A stretch of 32,000 nt of DNA, taken from positions 69,175 through 101,174 of the forward strand of contig NZ_JBALDM010000037.1 in assembly GCF_036917435.1 (NCBI RefSeq), written 5' to 3'. Position numbers and translations under genes: made by a program. Below, piece by piece: positions 16,566 through 25,729 of this stretch. The stretch comes from Nostoc sp. GTDB lineage: Bacteria > Cyanobacteriota > Cyanobacteriia > Cyanobacteriales > Nostocaceae. The notes below the pieces were generated by a model that saw only the letters and a list, made by a program, of their open reading frames with translations, was not told where the DNA came from and made no database searches. How positions within the stretch are numbered: position 1 is the stretch's first letter; each line of letters opens with the position of its first letter.

Positions 16566-17543
16566 CTAATTATTTGGAGTCCTTTTCTTTTGATTAACAC
16601 CTAAATTACCAGTCATGTTTGCTATTTGAGCAGATTTAAACTGTTCCCCCACAAATGTCAAAGAATCGGCTAAATGTTCCCGCCAGTATTGCCAAGTGTG
16701 ACTCCCAGGAAACTGACGAAGCAAATTATAAACTTTTAGTTCGCTTAGTACGTTAGAAAAGTTTTTGGCTTCGTTGATTTCTTCAATATCTGCTGTACCT
16801 GAATCTAGGTAAATTCGCAATCTTTTTGTAGCTGATGTGGGAATGTTTTTAATATAAACTATTGGGCTATTTGTAGGGCCGCTTTTATCTTGAAAATAAC
16901 CACTATGACTAAATAAAATTGAGAAGTGTTTCAGGTTGTGTAACCCCACATTCATTGCACCCCAACCACCAGAAGATAAACCACCTATTGCCCAAAAATC
17001 AGGATTATTTATTGTCCGATAACGATTTTGCACAACTTTTACTAACTCATCACCTACGGCTGTGGAGACTTTCCCGTTAGGGCCATCGATATATTCGGGA
17101 TCTCGGTAGCGACTAGAGCCGCGTTTGTCGTAGCCATCTGGTGTAATAATGATGCTGGGTGGCAACTTACCTGTAGCATAAAGTTGTTCCACTGTTTTGA
17201 GAGCTTCTCCCTTTTTTTGAATAAACCAATCACTGGGATAACCATGTCCGCCGTGAAGGAGAAAGATTACAGGATACTTTTGTTTTGGGTTTTGTTCATA
17301 GCCAGGGGGTAAAGAAACGCCGTAAGTGCGATTTGCACCCATTAATTGACTATCGTAGGTTTCAATTTTATAAGTTAATAAAGTTGCTGAATCGCCAGTA
17401 TTAGACCGATTTGGAAGAATGGAAGGTGTTGTAGGTAAATCTTGCTGTTGCGGTGGTTTTGCTACGACATTTTCAGATAAATTACAGGCAACTAGGGTTA
17501 AGACTGAAACTAGCAAAAGAATTTTTGATTGTTTATAGTTCAT
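16566..17543 (-). CDS. Membrane-anchored/secreted alpha/beta hydrolase, 'putative esterase' family (paralogue 2)
   Basis: 325 aa. Signal/lipobox-like LTLVAC. YPVIFLLHGGHGY, GGLSSGGWGA, FPGSHTW. Colinear with paralogue 1. Confidence 0.8.
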   Translation of the reverse strand: MNYKQSKILLLVSVLTLVACNLSENVVAKPPQQQDLPTTPSILPNRSNTGDSATLLTYKIETYDSQLMGANRTYGVSLPPGYEQNPKQKYPVIFLLHGGHGYPSDWFIQKKGEALKTVEQLYATGKLPPSIIITPDGYDKRGSSRYRDPEYIDGPNGKVSTAVGDELVKVVQNRYRTINNPDFWAIGGLSSGGWGAMNVGLHNLKHFSILFSHSGYFQDKSGPTNSPIVYIKNIPTSATKRLRIYLDSGTADIEEINEAKNFSNVLSELKVYNLLRQFPGSHTWQYWREHLADSLTFVGEQFKSAQIANMTGNLGVNQKKRTPNN

Positions 17544-17680
17544 CTTTGAAGGGCATTAGACAATCTGTGATCATAAACATTAACTTTACGCAAGTAATTT
17601 GTCAATGTTGTGTCAACAGGATGGAAACTTTGCGACTTGTTGTAAGTTAAAAGTTAAGAGTTAGGATAAGTTTCTTTAGG

Positions 17681-18631
17681 ATGCTTAAAAAACTACAACT
17701 TAATTTCAGCACACTGTTCGGCTTATCGCTGTTGGTGATTTCTGTGGTGGCGATCGCTAACGAACTGCACGAGTATAATTATCGTGATATCCTCAACTCT
17801 CTAGCTGCTATCCCCAAAAGCCGCTTAAGCTGGGCAATTTGGCTGACAGCCTTGGGCTATCTAGTGATGATTGGGTACGATATTTTAGGTTTTAGTTACA
17901 TTAATCGTTCCCTAAACTGGAACAAAATTGCTTTAACCAGCTTTATTAGCTCTGCCTTTAGTAATACTATTGGTTTTGCCCTACTGACTGGTAGTGCTAT
18001 CCGTTATCGATTTTATACTACTTGGGGAGTGTCAGCAGTTGCGATCGCACAAGTAATTGCTTTCGCCAATTTTACTTTTTGGTTGGGGATGTTTGCCGTT
18101 GCAGGTTGCTTGTTCCTCATCAATCCGCTCAAAATTCCCACTCAACTACATTTACCTTTTGCTACTGTGCGTCCCATCGGCGTGATTTTTCTGCTATTAG
18201 TCGCTGGTTATTTGCTAGGAAGTATTTTTATTAAACAACCGTTAATAATTCGTGGACAAGAATTTCGATTTCCTGATTTTAAGATATCCCTTATCCAAAT
18301 AGCAATTTCTGGTTTTGATTGGATTTTAGCAGCAGCAGTTCTTTATGCTGTGCTTCCCGGTAATATATCTTTGTCCTATCTGGACTTTTTGGGTATCTAC
18401 TTACTAGCGATGTTTGCAGGTGTTGTTAGTAATGTCCCCGGTGGTTTGGGAGTATTTGAAACTATAATTTTGCTGATTCTCTCATCTAAAGTTTCGGCGG
18501 CGGCAATTTTGGGTTCAATGCTGGCTTATCGGGGAGTCTATTATTTTTTACCTTTGTTAGTAGCATCGGGTTTGCTAGGAATTTATGAAGTTAGATCCGG
18601 TAATTTAAAAAATATCAATAATAAACCCTGA
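17681..18631 (+). CDS. MprF flippase-like membrane protein (LPG_synthase_TM / UPF0104 family)
   Basis: 316 aa, about 8 TM helices. VPGGLGVFETIILL...AYRGVYYFLPLL matches the IPGGFGAFDLVVLL...LYRFAYYFVP region of the S. aureus MprF N-terminal half. Confidence 0.8.
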   Translation: MLKKLQLNFSTLFGLSLLVISVVAIANELHEYNYRDILNSLAAIPKSRLSWAIWLTALGYLVMIGYDILGFSYINRSLNWNKIALTSFISSAFSNTIGFALLTGSAIRYRFYTTWGVSAVAIAQVIAFANFTFWLGMFAVAGCLFLINPLKIPTQLHLPFATVRPIGVIFLLLVAGYLLGSIFIKQPLIIRGQEFRFPDFKISLIQIAISGFDWILAAAVLYAVLPGNISLSYLDFLGIYLLAMFAGVVSNVPGGLGVFETIILLILSSKVSAAAILGSMLAYRGVYYFLPLLVASGLLGIYEVRSGNLKNINNKP

Positions 18632-18661
18632 AGTCTAGTTTCAGTATAACTACGAGCAACA

Positions 18662-18700
18662 AGATCCCCGACTTCTTTAAGAAGTCGGGGATCTAAGATT
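18662..18700 (+). terminator. Rho-independent terminator
   Basis: agatccccgacttc (18662-18675) / gaagtcggggatct (18681-18694), a perfect 14-bp stem, then aagatttttgtttatttt. Confidence 0.8.
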
Positions 18701-18872
18701 TTTGTTTATTTTAAATGCGATATCTTCACAACTAACGGCGAAAATTCCTAATTTTTGCTGAGGCGATCGCTAATTCAATTCCATAACAATAGTAATTAGT
18801 TGGAAGCTTTGAATTAGATTTCCATAAATCATCATCAAAATTCCGTTTTACTATTTGAGGATAGAAAGAATC

Positions 18873-19262
18873 ATGAAAAATAAAGTATTGTTTGGTGCTA
18901 TTTTCATGGCAACTTGGGTAGGAACATTAATACCTGGCGCTTTAGCTGCCTCACCCTGTTCTGTGGGACAAAAGGCTGAGGTTTTTTGGAAGGAAACATG
19001 GTATCCAGCAACGGTACTTAAGGTCAAGAATGAGCGTTGCTATATTACTTATGAAGGTTATAGTAGTTCCTGGAATGAATGGGTTGGTACTCAACGCTTT
19101 CGGGCATCATTTCAATCTGGAGATGCAGTGAGAATTTTGTGGAAGGGGAAATGGTATAAAGGGAAGGTTTTAGAAGTTAATAACGATCTTTATAAAATTA
19201 CTTATAATGGCTACGATAGCTCTTGGGATGAGTGGGTTAAACCTTCTAGAGTAAGCAGATAG
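18873..19262 (+). CDS. Exported protein with two tandem Tudor/Agenet-like (SMN-type) domains
   Basis: Start moved to ATG 18873 (gagg upstream). Signal peptide MKNKVLFGAIFMATWVGTLIPGALA. Two repeats: GQKAEVFWKETWYPATVLKVKNERCYITYEGYSSSWNEWV and GDAVRILWKGKWYKGKVLEVNNDLYKITYNGYDSSWDEWV. Confidence 0.65.
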   Translation: MKNKVLFGAIFMATWVGTLIPGALAASPCSVGQKAEVFWKETWYPATVLKVKNERCYITYEGYSSSWNEWVGTQRFRASFQSGDAVRILWKGKWYKGKVLEVNNDLYKITYNGYDSSWDEWVKPSRVSR

Positions 19263-19288
19263 AGAATATTTCACTTTTATAATTCGGG

Positions 19289-19331
19289 AGGGACGATTTC
19301 ATCTGTTGGAGTCGTCCCTTTAATTTGTTTT
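19289..19331 (+). terminator. Rho-independent terminator
   Basis: agggacga (19289-19296) / tcgtccct (19312-19319), then ttaatttgtttt. Confidence 0.6.
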
Positions 19332-19432
19332 ATAGTGGTTCTCCGTTGAGTAGGTACTGAACCTCACCCCCAACCCCTCCCCGCAAGCGAGGAGAGGCTA
19401 TGATGTACCTTCTATGATTAGGAAACGCTATA
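19331..19432. repeat. MITE-like imperfect palindrome with central CCCCTCC...GGAGAGG hairpin
   Basis: Ends tatagtggttctcc / ggaaacgctata and aggtac / gtacct are inverted. Core is cctcacccccaacccctccccgcaagcgaggagagg. Confidence 0.4.
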
Positions 19433-19459
19433 TAATTCATTTTGTTATTTGCTGCTATA

Positions 19460-19620
19460 TAAATGCTAGACAAGTCTAGACATTTATTTCTTACTTCACT
19501 GGGAGCATGGGAGCGGTTATCCCTCAGTAAGCTTTCAAGGTTTAGCCAACCTCGATAAATTTATTGCTGCGTTTAAATCCCTGTCCATTGAATGACCACA
19601 ACTACCACAGTTATAGGTTC
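19460..19620 (-). ncRNA. Predicted TnpB guide RNA (omega/reRNA) scaffold; extent not determined
   Basis: Position only. In characterised TnpB systems the RNA overlaps the tnpB 3' end and runs to the transposon right end. A CTAGAC-aa-GTCTAG hairpin lies at 19466-19479. No structure or covariation could be tested. Confidence 0.3.
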
Positions 19621-20611
19621 TTTCCATAAGTGGCATCTCTTGAATATGCCCACACTTTGAACAGGTTTTACTGGACGGATACCAACGGTCAGCAATTATT
19701 ATTTCGCAACCAAATTTTTTAGCTTTATATTCTAACTGGCGCTTGAACTCATGGAAGCCACAATCAGCTATCACCTGAGCTAATTTATGGTTGGCTAGCA
19801 TACCAGAGATATTCAAATCTTCTACTACTATTTTTGCGTGGTTTTTGCATAAGAAAGTAGTGATTTTATGGAGAGTATCTTTTCGGAGGTTTGCTACCCT
19901 AGCATGATGTTTAGCGAGTTGAATTTTAGCTTTATATCTGTTGTTAGAACCTTGATTTTTTCTAGCAAATGTTCTAGATAACCTTCTGAGCTTTTCTAGA
20001 TTGGTTTTGTAATGTTTGGGATTAGGAAAAACTACGCCAGTAGATAGCGTAGCTAGTTCTTTAACGCCAACATCAACTCCAACTACCTCATGTTGTTTAA
20101 TAGTTGGAGTATGATTTTGTTCGTAAGCAAAAGCAATAAACCAACTGTCAGCAGTCCGAGAAATAGTAATATGAGTACAAATAGTATGTGGCAAGCCTTC
20201 GTAAGTTTTGACCCATCCGATTGTAGGCAGTTTTATTGACTTACCTCCAACAGGGATAGGCTTACCACTAGCATCAATAGTAAAAGAATCGTGATGACCT
20301 TTCTTTTTAAACTTAGGATATCCGCCTTTACCACTAAGAAATCTAGAGAAAGCATCCCCCAGGTTGTCGAAAGCGTATTGAGTTATCTTTTGGCAAACTC
20401 CCTTTTCTTTAATCCATGAAAACTCAGGTTTAACATGATTGTTGAAGAACTTTTTAAGAATATATTTATTAGGCTTCAATCCATCGCTATATAAGTCTTT
20501 CCAAGTAGCTAAACCCCAGTTGTAGGTAAACCTAGCAATCCCAGCATGTTTACACATTATTATTTCTTGGGCTTTACTTAGTTTTAACTTTGTTTTGATG
20601 GATAAAAGCAT
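19535..20611 (-). CDS. tnpB: TnpB (OrfB) RuvC-like RNA-guided nuclease
   Basis: 358 aa. RuvC triad candidates in VGVDVGVKELA, IVVEDLNISGM and MDRDLNAAINL. Zinc finger CSKCGH...CGSCGH. Confidence 0.9.
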   Translation of the reverse strand: MLLSIKTKLKLSKAQEIIMCKHAGIARFTYNWGLATWKDLYSDGLKPNKYILKKFFNNHVKPEFSWIKEKGVCQKITQYAFDNLGDAFSRFLSGKGGYPKFKKKGHHDSFTIDASGKPIPVGGKSIKLPTIGWVKTYEGLPHTICTHITISRTADSWFIAFAYEQNHTPTIKQHEVVGVDVGVKELATLSTGVVFPNPKHYKTNLEKLRRLSRTFARKNQGSNNRYKAKIQLAKHHARVANLRKDTLHKITTFLCKNHAKIVVEDLNISGMLANHKLAQVIADCGFHEFKRQLEYKAKKFGCEIIIADRWYPSSKTCSKCGHIQEMPLMERTYNCGSCGHSMDRDLNAAINLSRLAKP

Positions 20612-20621
20612 TGTTTCGACC

Positions 20622-21272
20622 TCAACACTGGATTTCTTTGTTGTCTAATTCTGTAATATCTTGTATGGGTTTGTCAATAGCCTTTTCAAAAGTATCTTTA
20701 AGTTCTTTAGAATAGTTCCTTAACCCGTACAAGCGACAAGAAAAACAATGAATAATTGCCATTAAATCTTCTACAAGTTCTTGTTGAGGTGAAAGAGATT
20801 CTTGATTCGCTACCACTATTTCACAACCTACTGAGGTTGCTAGTTCTTGAATAAATTCAAAGGCAAATCTGCACAAGCGATCCTTATGGGCTAATACGAG
20901 GATAGAAACTTCACCTTTAAGAATTGAAAAAATAATAGATAAAAATTTCTTTCTTTTAAAATTCAATCCCCCACCAATCTCAGAAATCCAATCATCAACA
21001 GCTAAACCGCGATTTAGGCAGAATATTTCCATTGCTGATATCTGATTTTTTAGTTCTGGCTTTTGACCACTAGAAGACACGCGACAATAAACAATTACTT
21101 TTCGCTTTGCAACAGTTGGCTTTAATCCTTGAGCTACCAATAAATCATCTTCAGTATAAAAACGATGTCCCGATAAAGTTCTCAAGGCTGGGAGTTTTCC
21201 TGCGGTATCCCATCTCTGTAAGGTTTTAACGGATACTCCGATCTTTTGTGCAAACTCATGAGGCTTAAACAT
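20622..21272 (-). CDS. tnpA: IS607-type serine recombinase transposase TnpA
   Basis: 216 aa. MerR-like HTH FAQKIGVSVKTLQRWDTAGKL. Catalytic-serine motif VIVYCRVSSSGQK. Resolvase core HKDRLCRFAFE. Confidence 0.9.
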   Translation of the reverse strand: MFKPHEFAQKIGVSVKTLQRWDTAGKLPALRTLSGHRFYTEDDLLVAQGLKPTVAKRKVIVYCRVSSSGQKPELKNQISAMEIFCLNRGLAVDDWISEIGGGLNFKRKKFLSIIFSILKGEVSILVLAHKDRLCRFAFEFIQELATSVGCEIVVANQESLSPQQELVEDLMAIIHCFSCRLYGLRNYSKELKDTFEKAIDKPIQDITELDNKEIQC

Positions 21273-21409
21273 AAAAACACTTATAGGTTTGTCTATAAGT
21301 GTATATGTTTGTCTATTTTATTGCCAGCTAAGTTAACTCTCTTCATTAGGTGTTTTGAGGCTGTTAAACTGAGAACCATAAGTAAAATCTCGTGTGTTTT
21401 GGGAAACTT

Positions 21410-21799
21410 ATGGAGCCAGTATCACTTACAGCAGCTGCGATCGCAACCTTGGTCATCACCAAAGCCTTTGAAAAAACTGGTGAAGTTCTGGGTGGAAAGG
21501 TTTTAGAGCAAGGCGGTAAATTATTCTTACTGCTGAAACGTAAAGCACCTAATACGGCGAGTGCTATAGAACTGGCTCAAACACAACCGCTAGATTATAG
21601 TCAAGCTTCTTTGGTTGAGCAGGTAGAAGAAGCGGCAAAAAAAGACCCTGAAATTGCTCAAGCTGTTGAGGCGGTGGCGGATACTGTTAAATCTCAACCT
21701 TCTATTATCCAGAATTTTACGAACACCGTTCATAAAAATTATGGCGGGAATGTCGGGAACGTTGCTAATGACAACCGCAATCAAACCTTTAATTTCTGA
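21410..21799 (+). CDS. Short alpha-helical N-terminal module of the downstream STAND NTPase, ended by in-frame TGA
   Basis: MEPVSLTAAAIATLVITKAFEKTGEVLGGKVLEQGGKLF... from ATG 21410. Stop TGA at 21797-21799. Same reading frame as 21905..24079. Contains a HIP1 site. Confidence 0.6.
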   Translation: MEPVSLTAAAIATLVITKAFEKTGEVLGGKVLEQGGKLFLLLKRKAPNTASAIELAQTQPLDYSQASLVEQVEEAAKKDPEIAQAVEAVADTVKSQPSIIQNFTNTVHKNYGGNVGNVANDNRNQTFNF

Positions 21800-21904
21800 C
21801 TAAAGTCGCCTGAAGGGGAACGGGCAAAGTTAAATCCCCCGACTGGAACACCGCAAAATTTACCCCTGAGTGGGGTAGTTGATTTTGTTGGGCGTGAAAA
21901 AGAA

Positions 21905-24079
21905 TTGCAAAATCTGCACCAACTTTTGCAGGATAATAAACAAGTAGCCATTGCTGCGATCGCTGGGATGGGTGGAGTAGGTAAAACAGAACTCGCCTTA
22001 CAATATGCCATTCAGCACCGCGAAACATACAACGGTGGGCTTTGCTGGTTGCTAGCAAAAACTGGGGATGTGGGCATTCAAGTTGTACAGTTTGCCAGAA
22101 CGCAGCTTGATTTAAAGCCGCCAGAAGATTTTGATTTACTCGCCCAAGTGCAATACTGTTGGCGGCGTTGGCGTGAAGGTGATGTGCTGCTAGTGCTGGA
22201 TGATGTCAGCGACTACGAGGAAGTTAAGCGTTATTTACCGTCGTCATCTTCTCGGTTTAAAGTGCTGATGACTACGCGCCAGAAGTTGGGACGCATCGCA
22301 CAATTATCTTTAGATGTGCTGCAACCAGAGGCGGCGCTAGAGTTATTAAAGTCTTTACTCAAAGAAACACCAGAGCGAATTGAGCGAGAATTAGCTACAG
22401 CAAATCAGTTGTGTGAATGGTTAGGATATTTACCTTTGGGTGTGGAATTAGTGGGGCGCTATCTGGCGCGGAAACAGGATTTATCTTTAGCAGAAATGTT
22501 GCGGCGATTGGAGAACAAGCGATTAGATGAGCGTTCCCTCTCTAAATCTAAGTCGGAAGCTGACATGACAGCACAACGAGGTGTGTTAGCAGCCTTTGAG
22601 TTGAGTTGGCAAGAATTAGAGGACGATGATAAGCAATTGGGTTGTTTATTGAGTTTATTTGCCGCCGCACCTATACCTTGGAAGTTGGTGGAACAGTGTT
22701 TACCAGATGAAGATGTTGGAGATTTGGAAGAAATTAGAGACGATTGCTTGCTGAATCTGCATTTACTTCAGCGTAAAGGTGAGGGAATTTACCAACTGCA
22801 TCCACTATTGAGGGAGTTTTTTCAATATCAGTGTACAGGTTTAGAACAGGCAGAGGAATTAAAGCGATCGCTTTGTAGGGTAATGGTAGCAGTTGCTAAA
22901 GATATTCCTGAATTCCCTACTCTTAAACAAATCTACAATGTTACTCCCGCCATACCTCATTTAGCAGAAGTAGCAAAGAATCTCATTCAATACGTCAAGG
23001 ATGAAGATTTAATTTGGGCTTTCATCGGTAACGCTCAATTGTATCAAGATCAGGGATTGTATAATCAAGCAGTATCTTGGTATGAACAGTCTCTAACAGT
23101 CACTAAAAAGCGCTTGGGAGAGTCAGATGTATCTGTTGCCCAAAGTCTGAACAATCTGGCAGAACTATACTACTTACAAGGAAGATATAGCGAAGCTGAA
23201 CCCCTGTTCTTGCAAGCATTGGAACTCAGGCGACATTTGCTGGGAAAGGAACATCTAGATGTTGCACTTAGCCTCAGTAACTTGGCACAACTCTACAACT
23301 CCCAAGGAAGATATAGCGAAGCCGAACCCCTGTTCTTGCAAGCATTGGAACTCAGGCGACATTTGCTGGGAGAGTCACATATATCTGTTGCCCATAGTCT
23401 CAATAACCTGGCGGGACTCTACAATTACCAAGGAAGATACAGCGAAGCCGAACCTCTGTACCTGCAAGCTTTGGAATTAAAGCGATGCTTGCTGGGAGAA
23501 GAACATCCAGATTTTGCCCATAGTCTCCACAACCTAGCGTTCCTGTACTACTTACAAAGGAGATATAGCGAAGCCGAATCCCTCAATCTGCAAGTTTTGG
23601 AACTAAGGCGACGCTTACTGGGAGAAGAACATCCAGATTTTGCCTATAGCCTCAACACCCTGGCAGGACTCTATGAATCTCAAGGAAGATACAGCGAAGC
23701 CGAACCTTTAAACCTGCAAGCATTGGAACTAAGGCGACGCTTACTGGGAGAAGAACATCCATCTGTCGCAGATAGTCTCAACAACCTAGCGCAACTCTAC
23801 CGTTCCCAAGGCAGGTACAGCGAAGCCGAACCCCTTGACATCCAAACTTTGGCACTTAGGCGCAAACTGCTGGGTGAAGAACATCCACATGTCGCAATTA
23901 GTCTCAACAACTTAGCAAAACTCTACTACTTACAAGGAAATTATGCAAAATCCGAACCATTGTATCTGCAAGCATTAGATATTTTTGAGCAACGGTTAGG
24001 CGCAAATCATCCAAATACTATTACTGTGCGTGAAAATTTGGCATATTTGCGCGATCGCCTCCCCCCAAACCCAGAATAG
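21905..24079 (+). CDS. STAND NTPase: NB-ARC ATPase + eight 42-aa TPR units (frame open from 21800)
   Basis: P-loop AIAGMGGVGKTELA. Walker B LLVLDDV. MTTR motif. GLPLG-like GYLPLGVEL. Then 8 units of LGEEHP.VA.SLNNLA.LY..QGRYSEAEPL.LQALELRR.L. The listed start is TTG. Confidence 0.85.
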   Translation: MQNLHQLLQDNKQVAIAAIAGMGGVGKTELALQYAIQHRETYNGGLCWLLAKTGDVGIQVVQFARTQLDLKPPEDFDLLAQVQYCWRRWREGDVLLVLDDVSDYEEVKRYLPSSSSRFKVLMTTRQKLGRIAQLSLDVLQPEAALELLKSLLKETPERIERELATANQLCEWLGYLPLGVELVGRYLARKQDLSLAEMLRRLENKRLDERSLSKSKSEADMTAQRGVLAAFELSWQELEDDDKQLGCLLSLFAAAPIPWKLVEQCLPDEDVGDLEEIRDDCLLNLHLLQRKGEGIYQLHPLLREFFQYQCTGLEQAEELKRSLCRVMVAVAKDIPEFPTLKQIYNVTPAIPHLAEVAKNLIQYVKDEDLIWAFIGNAQLYQDQGLYNQAVSWYEQSLTVTKKRLGESDVSVAQSLNNLAELYYLQGRYSEAEPLFLQALELRRHLLGKEHLDVALSLSNLAQLYNSQGRYSEAEPLFLQALELRRHLLGESHISVAHSLNNLAGLYNYQGRYSEAEPLYLQALELKRCLLGEEHPDFAHSLHNLAFLYYLQRRYSEAESLNLQVLELRRRLLGEEHPDFAYSLNTLAGLYESQGRYSEAEPLNLQALELRRRLLGEEHPSVADSLNNLAQLYRSQGRYSEAEPLDIQTLALRRKLLGEEHPHVAISLNNLAKLYYLQGNYAKSEPLYLQALDIFEQRLGANHPNTITVRENLAYLRDRLPPNPE
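23054..24061 (+). repeat. Eight tandem 126-bp coding repeats (TPR units), several near-identical at DNA level
   Basis: For example, 23179-23248 and 23305-23374 differ at only a few bases over 70 nt (caaggaagatatagcgaagc[t/c]gaacccctgttcttgcaagcattggaactcaggcgacatttgctggga...). Confidence 0.85.
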
Positions 24080-24170
24080 GCAAGTTCTGTGCAAAGCCTA
24101 CCATGTTAAAAGCTAGATTTGCGATCGCGTAAACTAAAATTTATATCAAGCTAAGTAAAAATCCCTGATT

Positions 24171-24395
24171 ACTTACTCAAAATGGCGTTTGACTTACTCA
24201 AAAAAAGCTTTTGCTTTCTCAAACCTCAGTTTGCTTACTCATTTTGGTGTTTTCCGCAAGCAAAATCAACTTCTGCTTTCTCAAAAGAAGCTTTTACTTA
24301 CTCAAACCCCAGTTTGCTTACTCATTTTGGTGTTTTCTGCAAGTAAAATCAACTTCTGCTTTCTCAAACCCCAGTTTGCTTACTTATTTGAGTAA
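24171..24395 (+). repeat. Non-coding direct-repeat array (58-nt unit x2.4 plus 9-mer [T/C]T[A/T]CTCAAA motifs, terminal inverted copy)
   Basis: The 58-nt unit at 24218-24275 and 24301-24358 has 3 mismatches. A partial third copy lies at 24363-24386. ACTTACTCAAA / CTTTCTCAAA occurs at 24171, 24192, 24214, 24276, 24296 and 24358. Inverted TTTGAGTAA at 24387-24395. Confidence 0.8.
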
Positions 24396-24455
24396 TTCAC
24401 GTATTCATTTTGGAAGCGATCGCTGTTGTCATCAGACATCGCTTCTCGCCAAATC

Positions 24456-24686
24456 TTAAAAGCTATTCCATTCTTCTAGCGTGATTTCCCGCTCTAGAAT
24501 AACCTCAACTTCCCCAATCATCATCCGCAATTGGGGTACAGAATATTCATCATTAGAGGGAATAGTTAGGCGACATTCCCCGTAAACCATAAACTGATGT
24601 CTTGTTCCAGAAAAAGGCCCATCAAAGCCAAGCCATCGTAATTTCTTTACAAAATCACGACGCTTACAGGGTATCTATCGGCTCAA
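24456..24686 (-). pseudogene. hicA: HicA-family toxin gene with nonsense codon at position 4 (no usable start downstream)
   Basis: Own translation: TTG AGC CGA TAG, then IPCKRRDFVKKLRWLGFDGPFSGTRHQFMVYGECRLTIPSNDEYSVPQLRMMIGEVEVILEREITLEEWNSF*. The first ATG/GTG/TTG after the TAG is codon 26 (the M of HQFMVY). Confidence 0.55.
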
Positions 24687-24936
24687 GAGTCGGCTCCTTG
24701 TTGAGGTCAATATTATCAATTACTGGTAGAGAATGTCCCAGCTTTAACCCAAGCAAAATCCAGTCTTCTAGTATTGAGCGTAATTCATCCTCACACTCGC
24801 GCAAAGTTGATGCAAAGGCTATCACTCCTTTGCAAACAGGAATCCTACCTGCAAACGTACCATCTTTGAGCTTGTCATAAATTGCCTGAGCGATCGCTCG
24901 GTCAACATAATCGCTCAGAATAAACCTTATGGCCAT
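24664..24936 (-). CDS. hicB: HicB-family antitoxin-like protein
   Basis: 90 aa. FAGRIPVCKGVIAFASTLRECEDELRSILEDWILLGLKLGHSLP fits the HicB/UPF0150 fold pattern. Overlaps the hicA-like frame. Confidence 0.6.
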   Translation of the reverse strand: MAIRFILSDYVDRAIAQAIYDKLKDGTFAGRIPVCKGVIAFASTLRECEDELRSILEDWILLGLKLGHSLPVIDNIDLNKEPTLEPIDTL

Positions 24937-25132: not shown

Positions 25133-25729
25133 GTGCTTACTCAGTTACCAACTATTAACGTCCTAAAACAGCCCACTAGCTCTGCTTGGGTTGAACAAGC
25201 GATCGCTAACTTAGACATCATCTTACTCGATCACTCCCACTGTGAACGCAAAGCAGCAGGCGTGGCTTTGAACATGATGTTTCGCTACCCTTCCAATACT
25301 AAAATGGTTCGGGAATTAACTGCGATCGCCCGTGAAGAACTAGAACACTTTGAGCTAGTTAACCAATGGTTAGAACGCCGGAACATTCCCTTAGCTCCTT
25401 TACCCCCACCTCCCTACGGCGCAGGTTTAAAGGCTCAAGTTCGCCCTAAAGAACCTGAGCGATTTTTGGATTCCTTACTAGTCACTGGTTTAATCGAAGC
25501 TCGCTCTCACGAACGCCTGGGGCTATTAGCTGCTCACTGTCCAGAACCAGAGCTAGCAAAATTTTATCGGGGGTTAATGGCATCCGAAGCGCGTCACTAC
25601 GGTATATATTGGGTTTTAGCTGCTACTTATTTCGACAAAGAAATTGTCATGCAACGGCTTGATGAATTAGCAATTGTCGAAAGCGAGTTGCTGGCGACTT
25701 TGCACTCAGAACCAAGAATTCACAGTTAG
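25133..25729 (+). CDS. miaE: tRNA-(ms2io6A37) hydroxylase MiaE (di-iron)
   Basis: LLDHSHCERKAAGVALNM, EELEHFELV, GLIEARSHERL and ASEARHYGIY iron-ligand motifs. GTG start. Confidence 0.85.
   Translation: MLTQLPTINVLKQPTSSAWVEQAIANLDIILLDHSHCERKAAGVALNMMFRYPSNTKMVRELTAIAREELEHFELVNQWLERRNIPLAPLPPPPYGAGLKAQVRPKEPERFLDSLLVTGLIEARSHERLGLLAAHCPEPELAKFYRGLMASEARHYGIYWVLAATYFDKEIVMQRLDELAIVESELLATLHSEPRIHS

Follow-up and report, generated by a model that had tools for sequence, protein, structure and literature searches.

A conserved in-frame UGA between a putative Bell-type effector and a start-less NB-ARC/TPR sensor in cyanobacteria, a candidate for programmed stop codon read-through

Within a 32,000-nt stretch of a Nostoc sp. 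genome (assembly GCF_036917435.1, contig NZ_JBALDM010000037.1, positions 69,175 to 101,174 of the forward strand; hereafter, the window), a gene for a small putative Bell-type effector and an NB-ARC/TPR sensor of the NOD-like receptor (NLR) kind share one reading frame, 21410–24079, which is interrupted by a single TGA. This in-frame stop and its sequence context are conserved among cyanobacterial relatives, as is a modular in-frame junction to a sensor that has neither a start codon nor an amyloid motif of its own. We propose that the UGA is probably a site of programmed read-through, from which both a 129-aa effector and a predicted 889-aa effector-motif-sensor protein are made. We further consider the chances somewhat better than even that an entire subfamily of cyanobacterial Bell/BASS systems is encoded in this way, each as a single recoded gene in which a leaky UGA-CUA and a 3' RNA element yield an executioner together with a rare executioner-prion motif-NLR fusion.

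The small open reading frame (ORF) extends on the forward strand from ATG 21410 to the TGA at 21797–21799 and encodes 129 aa. A GTG at 21392 lies in frame upstream; ATG 21410 was taken as the start because every homologue begins MEP. The same frame stays open from 21800 to a stop codon at 24077–24079, the TGA being its sole break. The 35 codons that follow (21800–21904; LKSPEGERAKLNPPTGTPQNLPLSGVVDFVGREKE) contain no ATG, GTG or TTG, and the first canonical start after the TGA is TTG 21905, located 20 codons ahead of the P-loop GMGGVGKT (21965–21988). The NB-ARC match (Pfam PF00931, E 3.3e-18) covers residues 33–257 of the post-TGA frame (21896–22570) and begins upstream of this TTG, within the 3' end of the linker, with profile position 2 aligned at residue 33 (nt 21896). 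Seven to eight TPR_12/TPR_10 units (Pfam) form a sensor array (23000–24079) reaching to the stop codon, encoded by a tandem DNA repeat with a period of 126 bp and 6.7 copies. The conceptual read-through product of 889 aa consists of Bell domain, motif, linker, NB-ARC and TPR, and NCBI annotates the locus as two proteins, MEH2194418.1 (129 aa) and MEH2194419.1 (724 aa, from TTG 21905). An all-in-one NLR would carry effector, NOD and repeats in one uninterrupted ORF; here, the conserved TGA at 21797–21799 divides them.

An initial annotation, made by a model from the letters and an ORF list, had reported two ORFs in a shared frame parted by one TGA, a stretch of 35 codons with no ATG or GTG, a TTG about 20 codons before the P-loop as the first possible ATPase start, and the order helical module, Asn/Gly-rich segment, NB-ARC and TPR. 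Its coordinates agree with ours, there is no TTG before 21905 either, and the layout is borne out by Pfam and an AlphaFold2 (AF2) model. Of the HIP1 sites (GCGATCGC) that it saw in both pieces, the small ORF has one (21437) and the sensor three (21956, 22864 and 24051).

Based on its motif, its architecture and family members that bear BASS7, the small protein is a putative Bell-type domain with a BASS7-related C-terminal amyloid signalling motif. Approximately 200 homologues with 55–96% identity are all short stand-alone proteins, and a profile search of 1.84 billion cluster representatives gave 461 clusters at 50% identity, nearly all of 56–174 aa. The ORF begins with MEPVSLTAAAIATLVITKAFEKTGE, residues that are invariant or nearly so among 26 aligned homologues, and its N-terminal MEPVS helix corresponds to the “MEPIS”-type hydrophobic helix 1 that has been described for Bell/Bab/Hell domains (10.1101/2024.11.07.622273). 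The AF2 model is a helical bundle (pLDDT 67.6) with residues 112–129 disordered (pLDDT <50). From the homologues and this model, the Bell-type effector domain is placed at residues 1–107 (21410–21730, forward strand, starting MEPVSLTAAAIATLV).

The remainder of the small ORF (21731–21796; HKNYGGNVGNVANDNRNQTFNF) encodes a putative amyloid signalling motif, a BASS7-like variant. In the homologue alignment, the Bell domain is conserved, and the Asn/Gly-rich tail attached to its C-terminus is a cassette that varies. The window version, NYGGNVGNVANDNRNQTFNF, is a disordered, Asn/Gly-rich segment of 22 aa that ends TFNF like BASS7 and is predicted to form amyloid. Many sister loci carry the tail ENWQGINIKGGTNTISGNTFNF, which is the BASS7 motif that Table S2 of Dyrka et al. 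2020 (10.1101/2020.01.06.895854) gives for Bell proteins. Amyloid signalling has been shown experimentally by others for the Bell-type effector of Bab/Agp (10.1101/2024.11.07.622273) and for the BASS1/BASS3 motifs (10.1101/2020.01.06.895854).

The initial annotation had rightly seen a helical N-terminal module, which the AF2 bundle supports, but had not recognised it as Bell-like, and the Asn/Gly-rich segment that it called a linker exists but is better read as the BASS7-related motif. HMM classification, which it had suggested for this module, assigned no family: Pfam, NCBIfam and PADLOC gave weak chance matches only, a Bell model being absent from all three, and the Bell call derives from the motif, the architecture and the BASS7-bearing relatives. 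A profile search against PDB sequences returned coiled-coil noise only.

Conservation of the stop was assessed in 81 loci, comprising 80 fetched genomic loci (cited below by L numbers) and the window. The small ORF ends in TGA in 68 of them and in TAA/TAG in the other 13. A long ORF in the same frame follows the stop in 66/68 TGA loci, the exceptions being L021 (contig end) and L072 (truncated), as compared with 0/13 TAA/TAG loci. The codon after the TGA is CTA, CTG or CTC in 67/68 TGA loci, giving C at position +4; in the window, UGA and CUA occupy 21797–21802. No sense codon was found at the TGA position in any of the 81 loci, and a junction-spanning query of 5.8e9 database proteins found no fused protein with a sense codon there. 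Matches of 70–80% coverage to this query were NLRs with other N-terminal domains (EAD4 and others) and were set aside. The search with a fused protein that the initial annotation had proposed found no continuous orthologue, and the codon in question is a stop in every locus. When metagenomes were scanned with NNN at the stop, 14 matches were obtained, of which four were relevant contigs, all with TGA (4/4), and the other 10 were chance matches.

A control set drawn from these loci, 240 ORFs with a length of 200 aa or more, behaves differently. Their stops are TAA (56%), TAG (27%) and TGA (17.5%); TGA-C accounts for 2%, TGA-CTN was found in 0/240, and in-frame extensions of at least 100 codons occur in 1.25%. 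These few long extensions proved to be ordinary nonsense pseudogenes. Relative to the control ORFs, the TGA-plus-extension arrangement of the Bell family is far beyond chance. Both the Bell and the sensor parts are under purifying selection. The stop is ancient: in a tree of the Bell domain, TGA-type loci occur throughout the family, in Nostocales and in Oscillatoriales-type genera. Two-gene TAA/TAG loci are interspersed among them at least six times, which makes the association of stop codon and architecture a replicated one.

The frame across the junction is maintained through much change. The distance from TGA to P-loop takes at least seven values (48–55 codons), and all linker indels are whole codons. 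The junction connects Bell domain plus motif, always in frame, to at least seven C-terminal architectures: NB-ARC-TPR, another NB-ARC, nSTAND1-WD40, nSTAND3/5, transmembrane (TM) plus PsbP-like, TM plus Pro-rich, and small proteins of unknown family. No comparable constancy is seen for translation starts. The first ATG, GTG or TTG after the TGA falls anywhere from codon 4 to codon 44 across TGA-type loci (35 in the window), NCBI start calls for the sensor are inconsistent (724-aa and 739-aa versions), and no Shine-Dalgarno-like element is conserved in TGA-type linkers. A stop at the same place in related genomes, together with a proper start for the NB-ARC part, had been named in the initial annotation as a sign of two separate genes; the stop is indeed there, whereas a conserved NB-ARC start is not.

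Conserved residues also lie ahead of any usable start. The segment PQNLPLSGV.FVGRE precedes the first canonical start in the window, L010, L020 and L069. The conserved PQNLPLSGVVDFVGRE, upstream of any canonical start in the window, is translated from a true ATG in two-gene relatives, and LNPPTGTPQNLPLSGVVDFVGR is likewise encoded within 21800–21904, upstream of any such start. As alternatives, +1 or overlapping starts (TTG/CTG over the TGA) were considered and rejected, as the frame closes after approximately 16 codons and the +1 frame after approximately nine.

The two-gene relatives provide the relevant comparison for the sensor. They comprise 10 TAA/TAG loci with an intact small ORF, in which the sensor has its own start. 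In L019 and L027 (TAA-type), the NLR has its own ATG 50–70 nt downstream, and its N-terminus copies the effector motif (AEKIGIVVQGGTVNI vs MAEKIGVVNYGKTNIG). In L078 as in L079, the TAA is followed 5 nt later by the start of the NLR, which opens with TTENWNGINIKGGNPVINI, a copy of BASS7, and continues SQSERAKLNPP; the L078 NLR reads ISQSERAKLNPP after its own BASS7 copy and is homologous at the nucleotide level to the window linker. Motif copies were scored by Smith-Waterman alignment of the effector tail with the first 120 residues after the TGA or with the sensor N-terminus, expressed as a z score. A sensor-side copy was clear in 5/10 two-gene loci, with z of 12–13 in L078/L079 and approximately 4 in L019/L022/L027. 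Among 66 TGA-type sensors, none had such a copy (median z −0.41, maximum 1.7). Judged from their sequences, TGA-type sensors lack a start as well as a motif of their own.

Motif and sensor appear to be exchangeable at the junction. L029, from another Nostoc metagenome-assembled genome (MAG), matches window positions 17002–24413 with nucleotide identities of 96.6% in the upstream flank and 92% in the sensor, and the tail of its effector is of the BASS7 type rather than the NYGGNVGNV type, which implies that the Bell/motif module was swapped by recombination at the conserved junction. As the sensors are nearly identical and the motifs different, the motif does not seem to co-evolve with a sensor-side partner. 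Some single MAGs hold two or more TGA-type loci (L007/L059, L010/L063 and L034/L041); in L007/L059 and L010/L063 the motif variants differ within the pair, which is consistent with parallel, insulated signalling channels.

Downstream of the TGA, constraint is visible at the RNA level. Synonymous variation (pS) amounts to 0.078 over codons 1–12 past the UGA, as opposed to 0.45–0.55 in the flanks, and in sliding windows it drops to 0.065–0.10. A 5-bp hairpin, GCCYG-N8-CRGGY, is separated from the UGA by an 8-nt spacer, so that its stem starts 9 nt downstream of the UGA; in the window it lies at 21808–21825 on the forward strand (GCCUG-AAGGGGAA-CGGGC). The pairing combinations point to covariation: CCCG/CGGG was counted 23 times, CCTG/CGGG 13 times, CCTG/CAGG nine times and CCCG/CAGG never, and TCGG/CCGA and TCCG/CGGA also occur. 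RNAalifold recovered the hairpin in a 43-locus subgroup (−7.0 kcal/mol), and the window hairpin alone has −8.8 kcal/mol and a z of −2.45. Its 5' arm is built from 9 extra nt that are missing in L078, the sole two-gene locus checked. A mini-helix that would sequester the UGA itself (UGAC/GUCG) was discarded, being unconserved and broken by CCG and CUCG variants.

A second hairpin within the linker (21860–21878, forward strand; ACCCCUGAGUGGGGU), followed by a U-rich tract, resembles a terminator (folding z −2.47) and encodes PLSGV. In the Nostoc group (e.g., L007 and L012), the stem persists with a changing loop; distant TGA-type loci lack it. Such an intrinsic-terminator-like hairpin could attenuate transcription after the effector.

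UGA followed by C is a weak terminator in bacteria. The paper PMC5289835 deals with U at position +4. In the mechanism that we propose, 21410–24079 would be one recoded gene of a Bell/BASS-NLR cell-death system of the abortive-infection type. Most ribosomes would stop at UGA 21797–21799 and release the 129-aa Bell membrane-targeting domain with its amyloid motif. A minority would decode UGA-CUA, most likely via near-cognate tRNA-Trp, and produce the 889-aa Bell-motif-linker-NB-ARC-TPR protein, possibly assisted by the conserved 3' sequence and hairpin. On sensing a trigger, the TPR/NB-ARC part would oligomerise and bring the motifs of the long form together, whereupon these may adopt an amyloid fold. 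This amyloid would template the many free short effectors, whose Bell domains would then damage the membrane. Read-through would thereby supply the sensor-side copy of the motif that is separately encoded in two-gene relatives, fix a low sensor-to-effector ratio and guarantee matching motifs, and it would be the only route for the sensor to carry a templating motif. The proposed events after sensing follow a model that has experimental support for HET-S/NWD2, BASS pairs and Bab/Agp.

Several observations weigh against this interpretation. The sensor-side copy is weak or undetected in the other 5/10 two-gene loci (z 0–3; L023, L055, L061, L062 and L076), which makes its absence from TGA-type sensors weaker evidence. 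Although the frame is kept through at least seven linker lengths and at least seven architectures, pN/pS (non-synonymous relative to synonymous variation) is 1.49 in codons 1–12 after the TGA, because synonymous sites are frozen, and 0.36 in codons 13–27. Codons 1–12 have no coding signature of their own, and the case for their translation comes from frame conservation. A few loci (e.g., L047 with TTG at codon 7) allow an ordinary start of a second gene. A second, similar synonymous dip occurs at codons 94–97. The hairpin is short (5 bp), the “ESI” linker subgroup and some distant loci lack it, and RNAalifold found no structure in a mixed alignment of 64 sequences. The 81 loci are related by phylogeny, and their counts overstate the number of independent events. 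The window tail is absent from Table S2 of 10.1101/2020.01.06.895854 and is not a published BASS family; a Foldseek search of the AF2 model against PDB returned nothing at E < 1, leaving the Bell fold unconfirmed by structure search. In this strain, an insertion sequence (IS) approximately 70 bp upstream may have displaced the Bell promoter. Finally, we hold read-through to be probable and no more because the long protein is a prediction from sequence.

Several of these points would fit two separately made proteins, an explanation that we regard as unlikely. The UGA would terminate, and a motif-less sensor would be initiated on its own by termination-reinitiation (70S scanning) or from a variable or non-canonical TTG/GTG in the linker. 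To the same limited degree, it is conceivable that such a sensor contacts the Bell protein in some other way and that the 3' element is a signal for reinitiation or mRNA processing. This agrees with the NCBI annotation as MEH2194418.1 and MEH2194419.1, with the TTG or GTG that most loci have at codons 17–25, with the missing coding signature of the first 12 post-stop codons, and with the tiny spacers or overlaps that are usual in Bell/NLR pairs and suggest translational coupling (Dyrka et al.); given the z of 0–3 in 5/10 intact two-gene relatives, a motif-less sensor may be unexceptional in the family. However, it fails to explain why the sensor keeps the frame of the upstream ORF in 66/66 loci despite many indels and domain swaps, why UGA-C is constant where TAA makes up 56% of local stops, or why there is no conserved start position. 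The PQNLPLSG..FVGRE residues, moreover, lie ahead of the first start in the window, L010, L020 and L069, the effector motif would be left partnerless, and the lack of a conserved Shine-Dalgarno-like element speaks against independent initiation.

We think it very unlikely that the UGA is instead decoded efficiently, as selenocysteine with the hairpin serving as a bacterial selenocysteine insertion sequence (SECIS) or by a suppressor tRNA, with essentially only an all-in-one Bell-motif-NLR as product. UGA is used specifically, the apical loop of the hairpin lies 17–24 nt after it, a distance compatible with bacterial SECIS, and all-in-one Bell-NLR and Bell-TM fusions exist. Yet the selenocysteine-decoding trait is unreported in Cyanobacteria (PMC1794560), no report of an opal suppressor tRNA in Nostocales was found in the literature searched, selenocysteine in a disordered linker has no chemical rationale, and the hairpin is missing from many TGA-type loci. 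Were the fusion alone required, variants with a sense codon would be expected to be common, and none was found among loci, protein databases or metagenomes.

That an all-in-one NLR was very recently disrupted by a nonsense mutation to TGA, or that the TGA stems from faulty sequencing or assembly, as the initial annotation had offered beside the “split or read-through arrangement” that holds up, is refuted: a lone in-frame stop with no downstream start does resemble such an event in one genome, and related NLR genes do acquire nonsense mutations (L026, L071), but the same TGA stands in 66 loci of many genera and assemblies and in four metagenome contigs, both parts are under purifying selection, and no intact, ancestor-like sequence with a sense codon exists among them. 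Real nonsense pseudogenes in related loci have their stops at L026 5912 (TAG), L071 6497 (TGA), L033 4253 (TAA) and L060 4085 (TAA); these fall in TPR arrays, an nSTAND sensor and Bell ORFs, in contrast to the conserved TGA.

The closest known systems are the Bell/BASS-NLR pairs (10.1101/2020.01.06.895854), in particular cyanobacterial BASS7. Shared features are a helical Bell domain of approximately 100 aa with a 20–25-aa Asn/Gly-rich C-terminal motif, an effector directly upstream of and collinear with an NB-ARC/TPR (or WD) STAND protein, and the host range (Nostoc, Calothrix, etc.), and sister loci bear the published BASS7 sequence. The same Bell family includes two-gene members, some with a sensor-side motif (L019, L027, L078, L079) and others with at most a weak one (L023, L055, L061, L062, L076). 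What differs in the window is that the sensor lacks its own start and motif and that the effector stop is a conserved UGA-CUA in the sensor frame. Dyrka et al. require the motif on both proteins; the window arrangement lies outside this pair definition and would enter it only through read-through. Functionally, the system would belong with the Bell/BASS-NLR pairs, but it departs from their two-motif rule and would add a recoding step. Table S2 of the same paper lists two BASS7 pairs with unusually large gene distances, AKG20974.1/AKG24489.1 (1725 bp) and AFZ00398.1/AFZ00399.1 (748 bp); their Bell genes may represent TGA-type loci to which an NLR farther away was assigned as partner.

The proposed logic, an oligomerising sensor nucleating an amyloid that converts a pore-forming or membrane-targeting effector, is also that of HET-S/NWD2 in Podospora and Bab/Agp in E. 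coli ECOR25, and the window effector has the MEPIS-type N-terminal helix in common with the Bab/Agp type (10.1101/2024.11.07.622273). In those systems, separate genes each carry their own motif, whereas here the sensor motif would be the effector's codons, and the long form would also carry the Bell domain. All-in-one NLRs, including the Bell-NLR fusions noted by Dyrka et al., resemble the conceptual read-through product in architecture. They are, however, continuous ORFs that normally have no amyloid motif, whereas here the stop is maintained and a free effector would also be made. One continuous protein, P0355 (412 aa), consists of a Bell domain, a long Asn/Gly/Ser-rich region, a TM helix, a Pro/Ser-rich spacer and, as judged by eye, a GUN4-like domain, and is the uninterrupted counterpart of TGA-type loci with TM extensions (L049, L066, L067). 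Its continuous Bell, Asn/Gly-rich, TM and GUN4-like parts indicate that the fusion architecture is viable.

Examples of programmed UGA read-through are the coat/A1 protein of phage Qbeta, the read-through of alphaviruses and retroviruses, and the eukaryotic UGA-CUA(G) motif. The window locus is like these in having C at +4 (CUA), a conserved in-frame extension, low synonymous variation and a predicted stem-loop approximately 8 nt downstream, and the long form predicted here would, as there, be a minor isoform with the same N-terminus as a short, abundant one. The autoregulatory site of prfB (RF2), CUU UGA C, undergoes +1 frameshifting with an upstream Shine-Dalgarno element; its poor termination context, UGA-C, is alike, but the window locus stays in the same frame, its +1 frame closing after approximately nine codons. 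To our knowledge, known bacterial read-through either is unprogrammed leakiness or concerns genes of phages. Neither stop codons nor read-through are mentioned by Dyrka et al., by Kaur et al., in the Bab/Agp preprint or in the amyloid signalling motif detection paper, and no description of a conserved chromosomal read-through family that makes an immune sensor in bacteria was found in the literature searched, which covered subscription journals in part.

What HET-S/NWD2 is in fungi, and RHIM signalling elsewhere, Bell/BASS-NLR pairs are in bacteria, and they are defined by the rule that two proteins share a motif. The subfamily described here breaks this rule in a way that would be sensible only if the ribosome reads through the stop. 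If so, conserved functional read-through would occur in bacterial chromosomal genes and not in phages alone, with no involvement of selenocysteine, and a sensor/effector pair could be encoded by one gene that has the ratio built in and matches the motifs perfectly. The templating motif of the sensor would be the effector's own sequence, leaving motif and sensor modules freely swappable at the junction. Many N-termini of cyanobacterial NLRs would then be misannotated, and “orphan” Bell motifs would be hidden from, and unclassifiable by, pair-based screens. The UGA-CUA element of approximately 35 nt might also be usable as a portable read-through signal in cyanobacterial synthetic biology. The arrangement offers a testable model for the interconversion of all-in-one and two-gene NLR architectures.

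Upstream of the Bell gene, the window contains an intact-looking IS607-family element on the reverse strand (19335–21340), with a TnpB gene (tnpB, 19535–20611) and a serine recombinase gene (tnpA, 20622–21272; Resolvase and MerR domains) identified by Pfam. The initial annotation had noted it correctly, and comparison with orthologous loci shows a strain-specific insertion of approximately 2 kb, ending approximately 70 bp before the Bell start: L001, L002 and L003 lack it, and in them the window flanks 19326/19334 and 21339/21359 lie next to each other. No HIP1 site occurs between 18771 and 21436, as compared with 40 in the whole window. The element is not part of the Bell-sensor system. It sits between the Bell gene and a gene on the forward strand (18855–19262) for a small protein whose N-terminus is hydrophobic and which has Agenet/Tudor-knot domains in tandem.

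Shortly after the end of the sensor gene, an 83-bp tandem repeat (24193–24368; 2.1 copies, 92% match) has related copies in L029. On the reverse strand follow a 44-aa ORF (24456–24590) and, adjoining it, a gene for a UPF0150/HicB-like antitoxin (24664–24936), which together form a possible HicAB-type toxin-antitoxin pair (24456–24936) beside the NLR. Farther downstream of the sensor, 25133–25729 on the forward strand encodes the tRNA-(ms2io6A) hydroxylase MiaE, an enzyme that modifies the tRNA anticodon loop.

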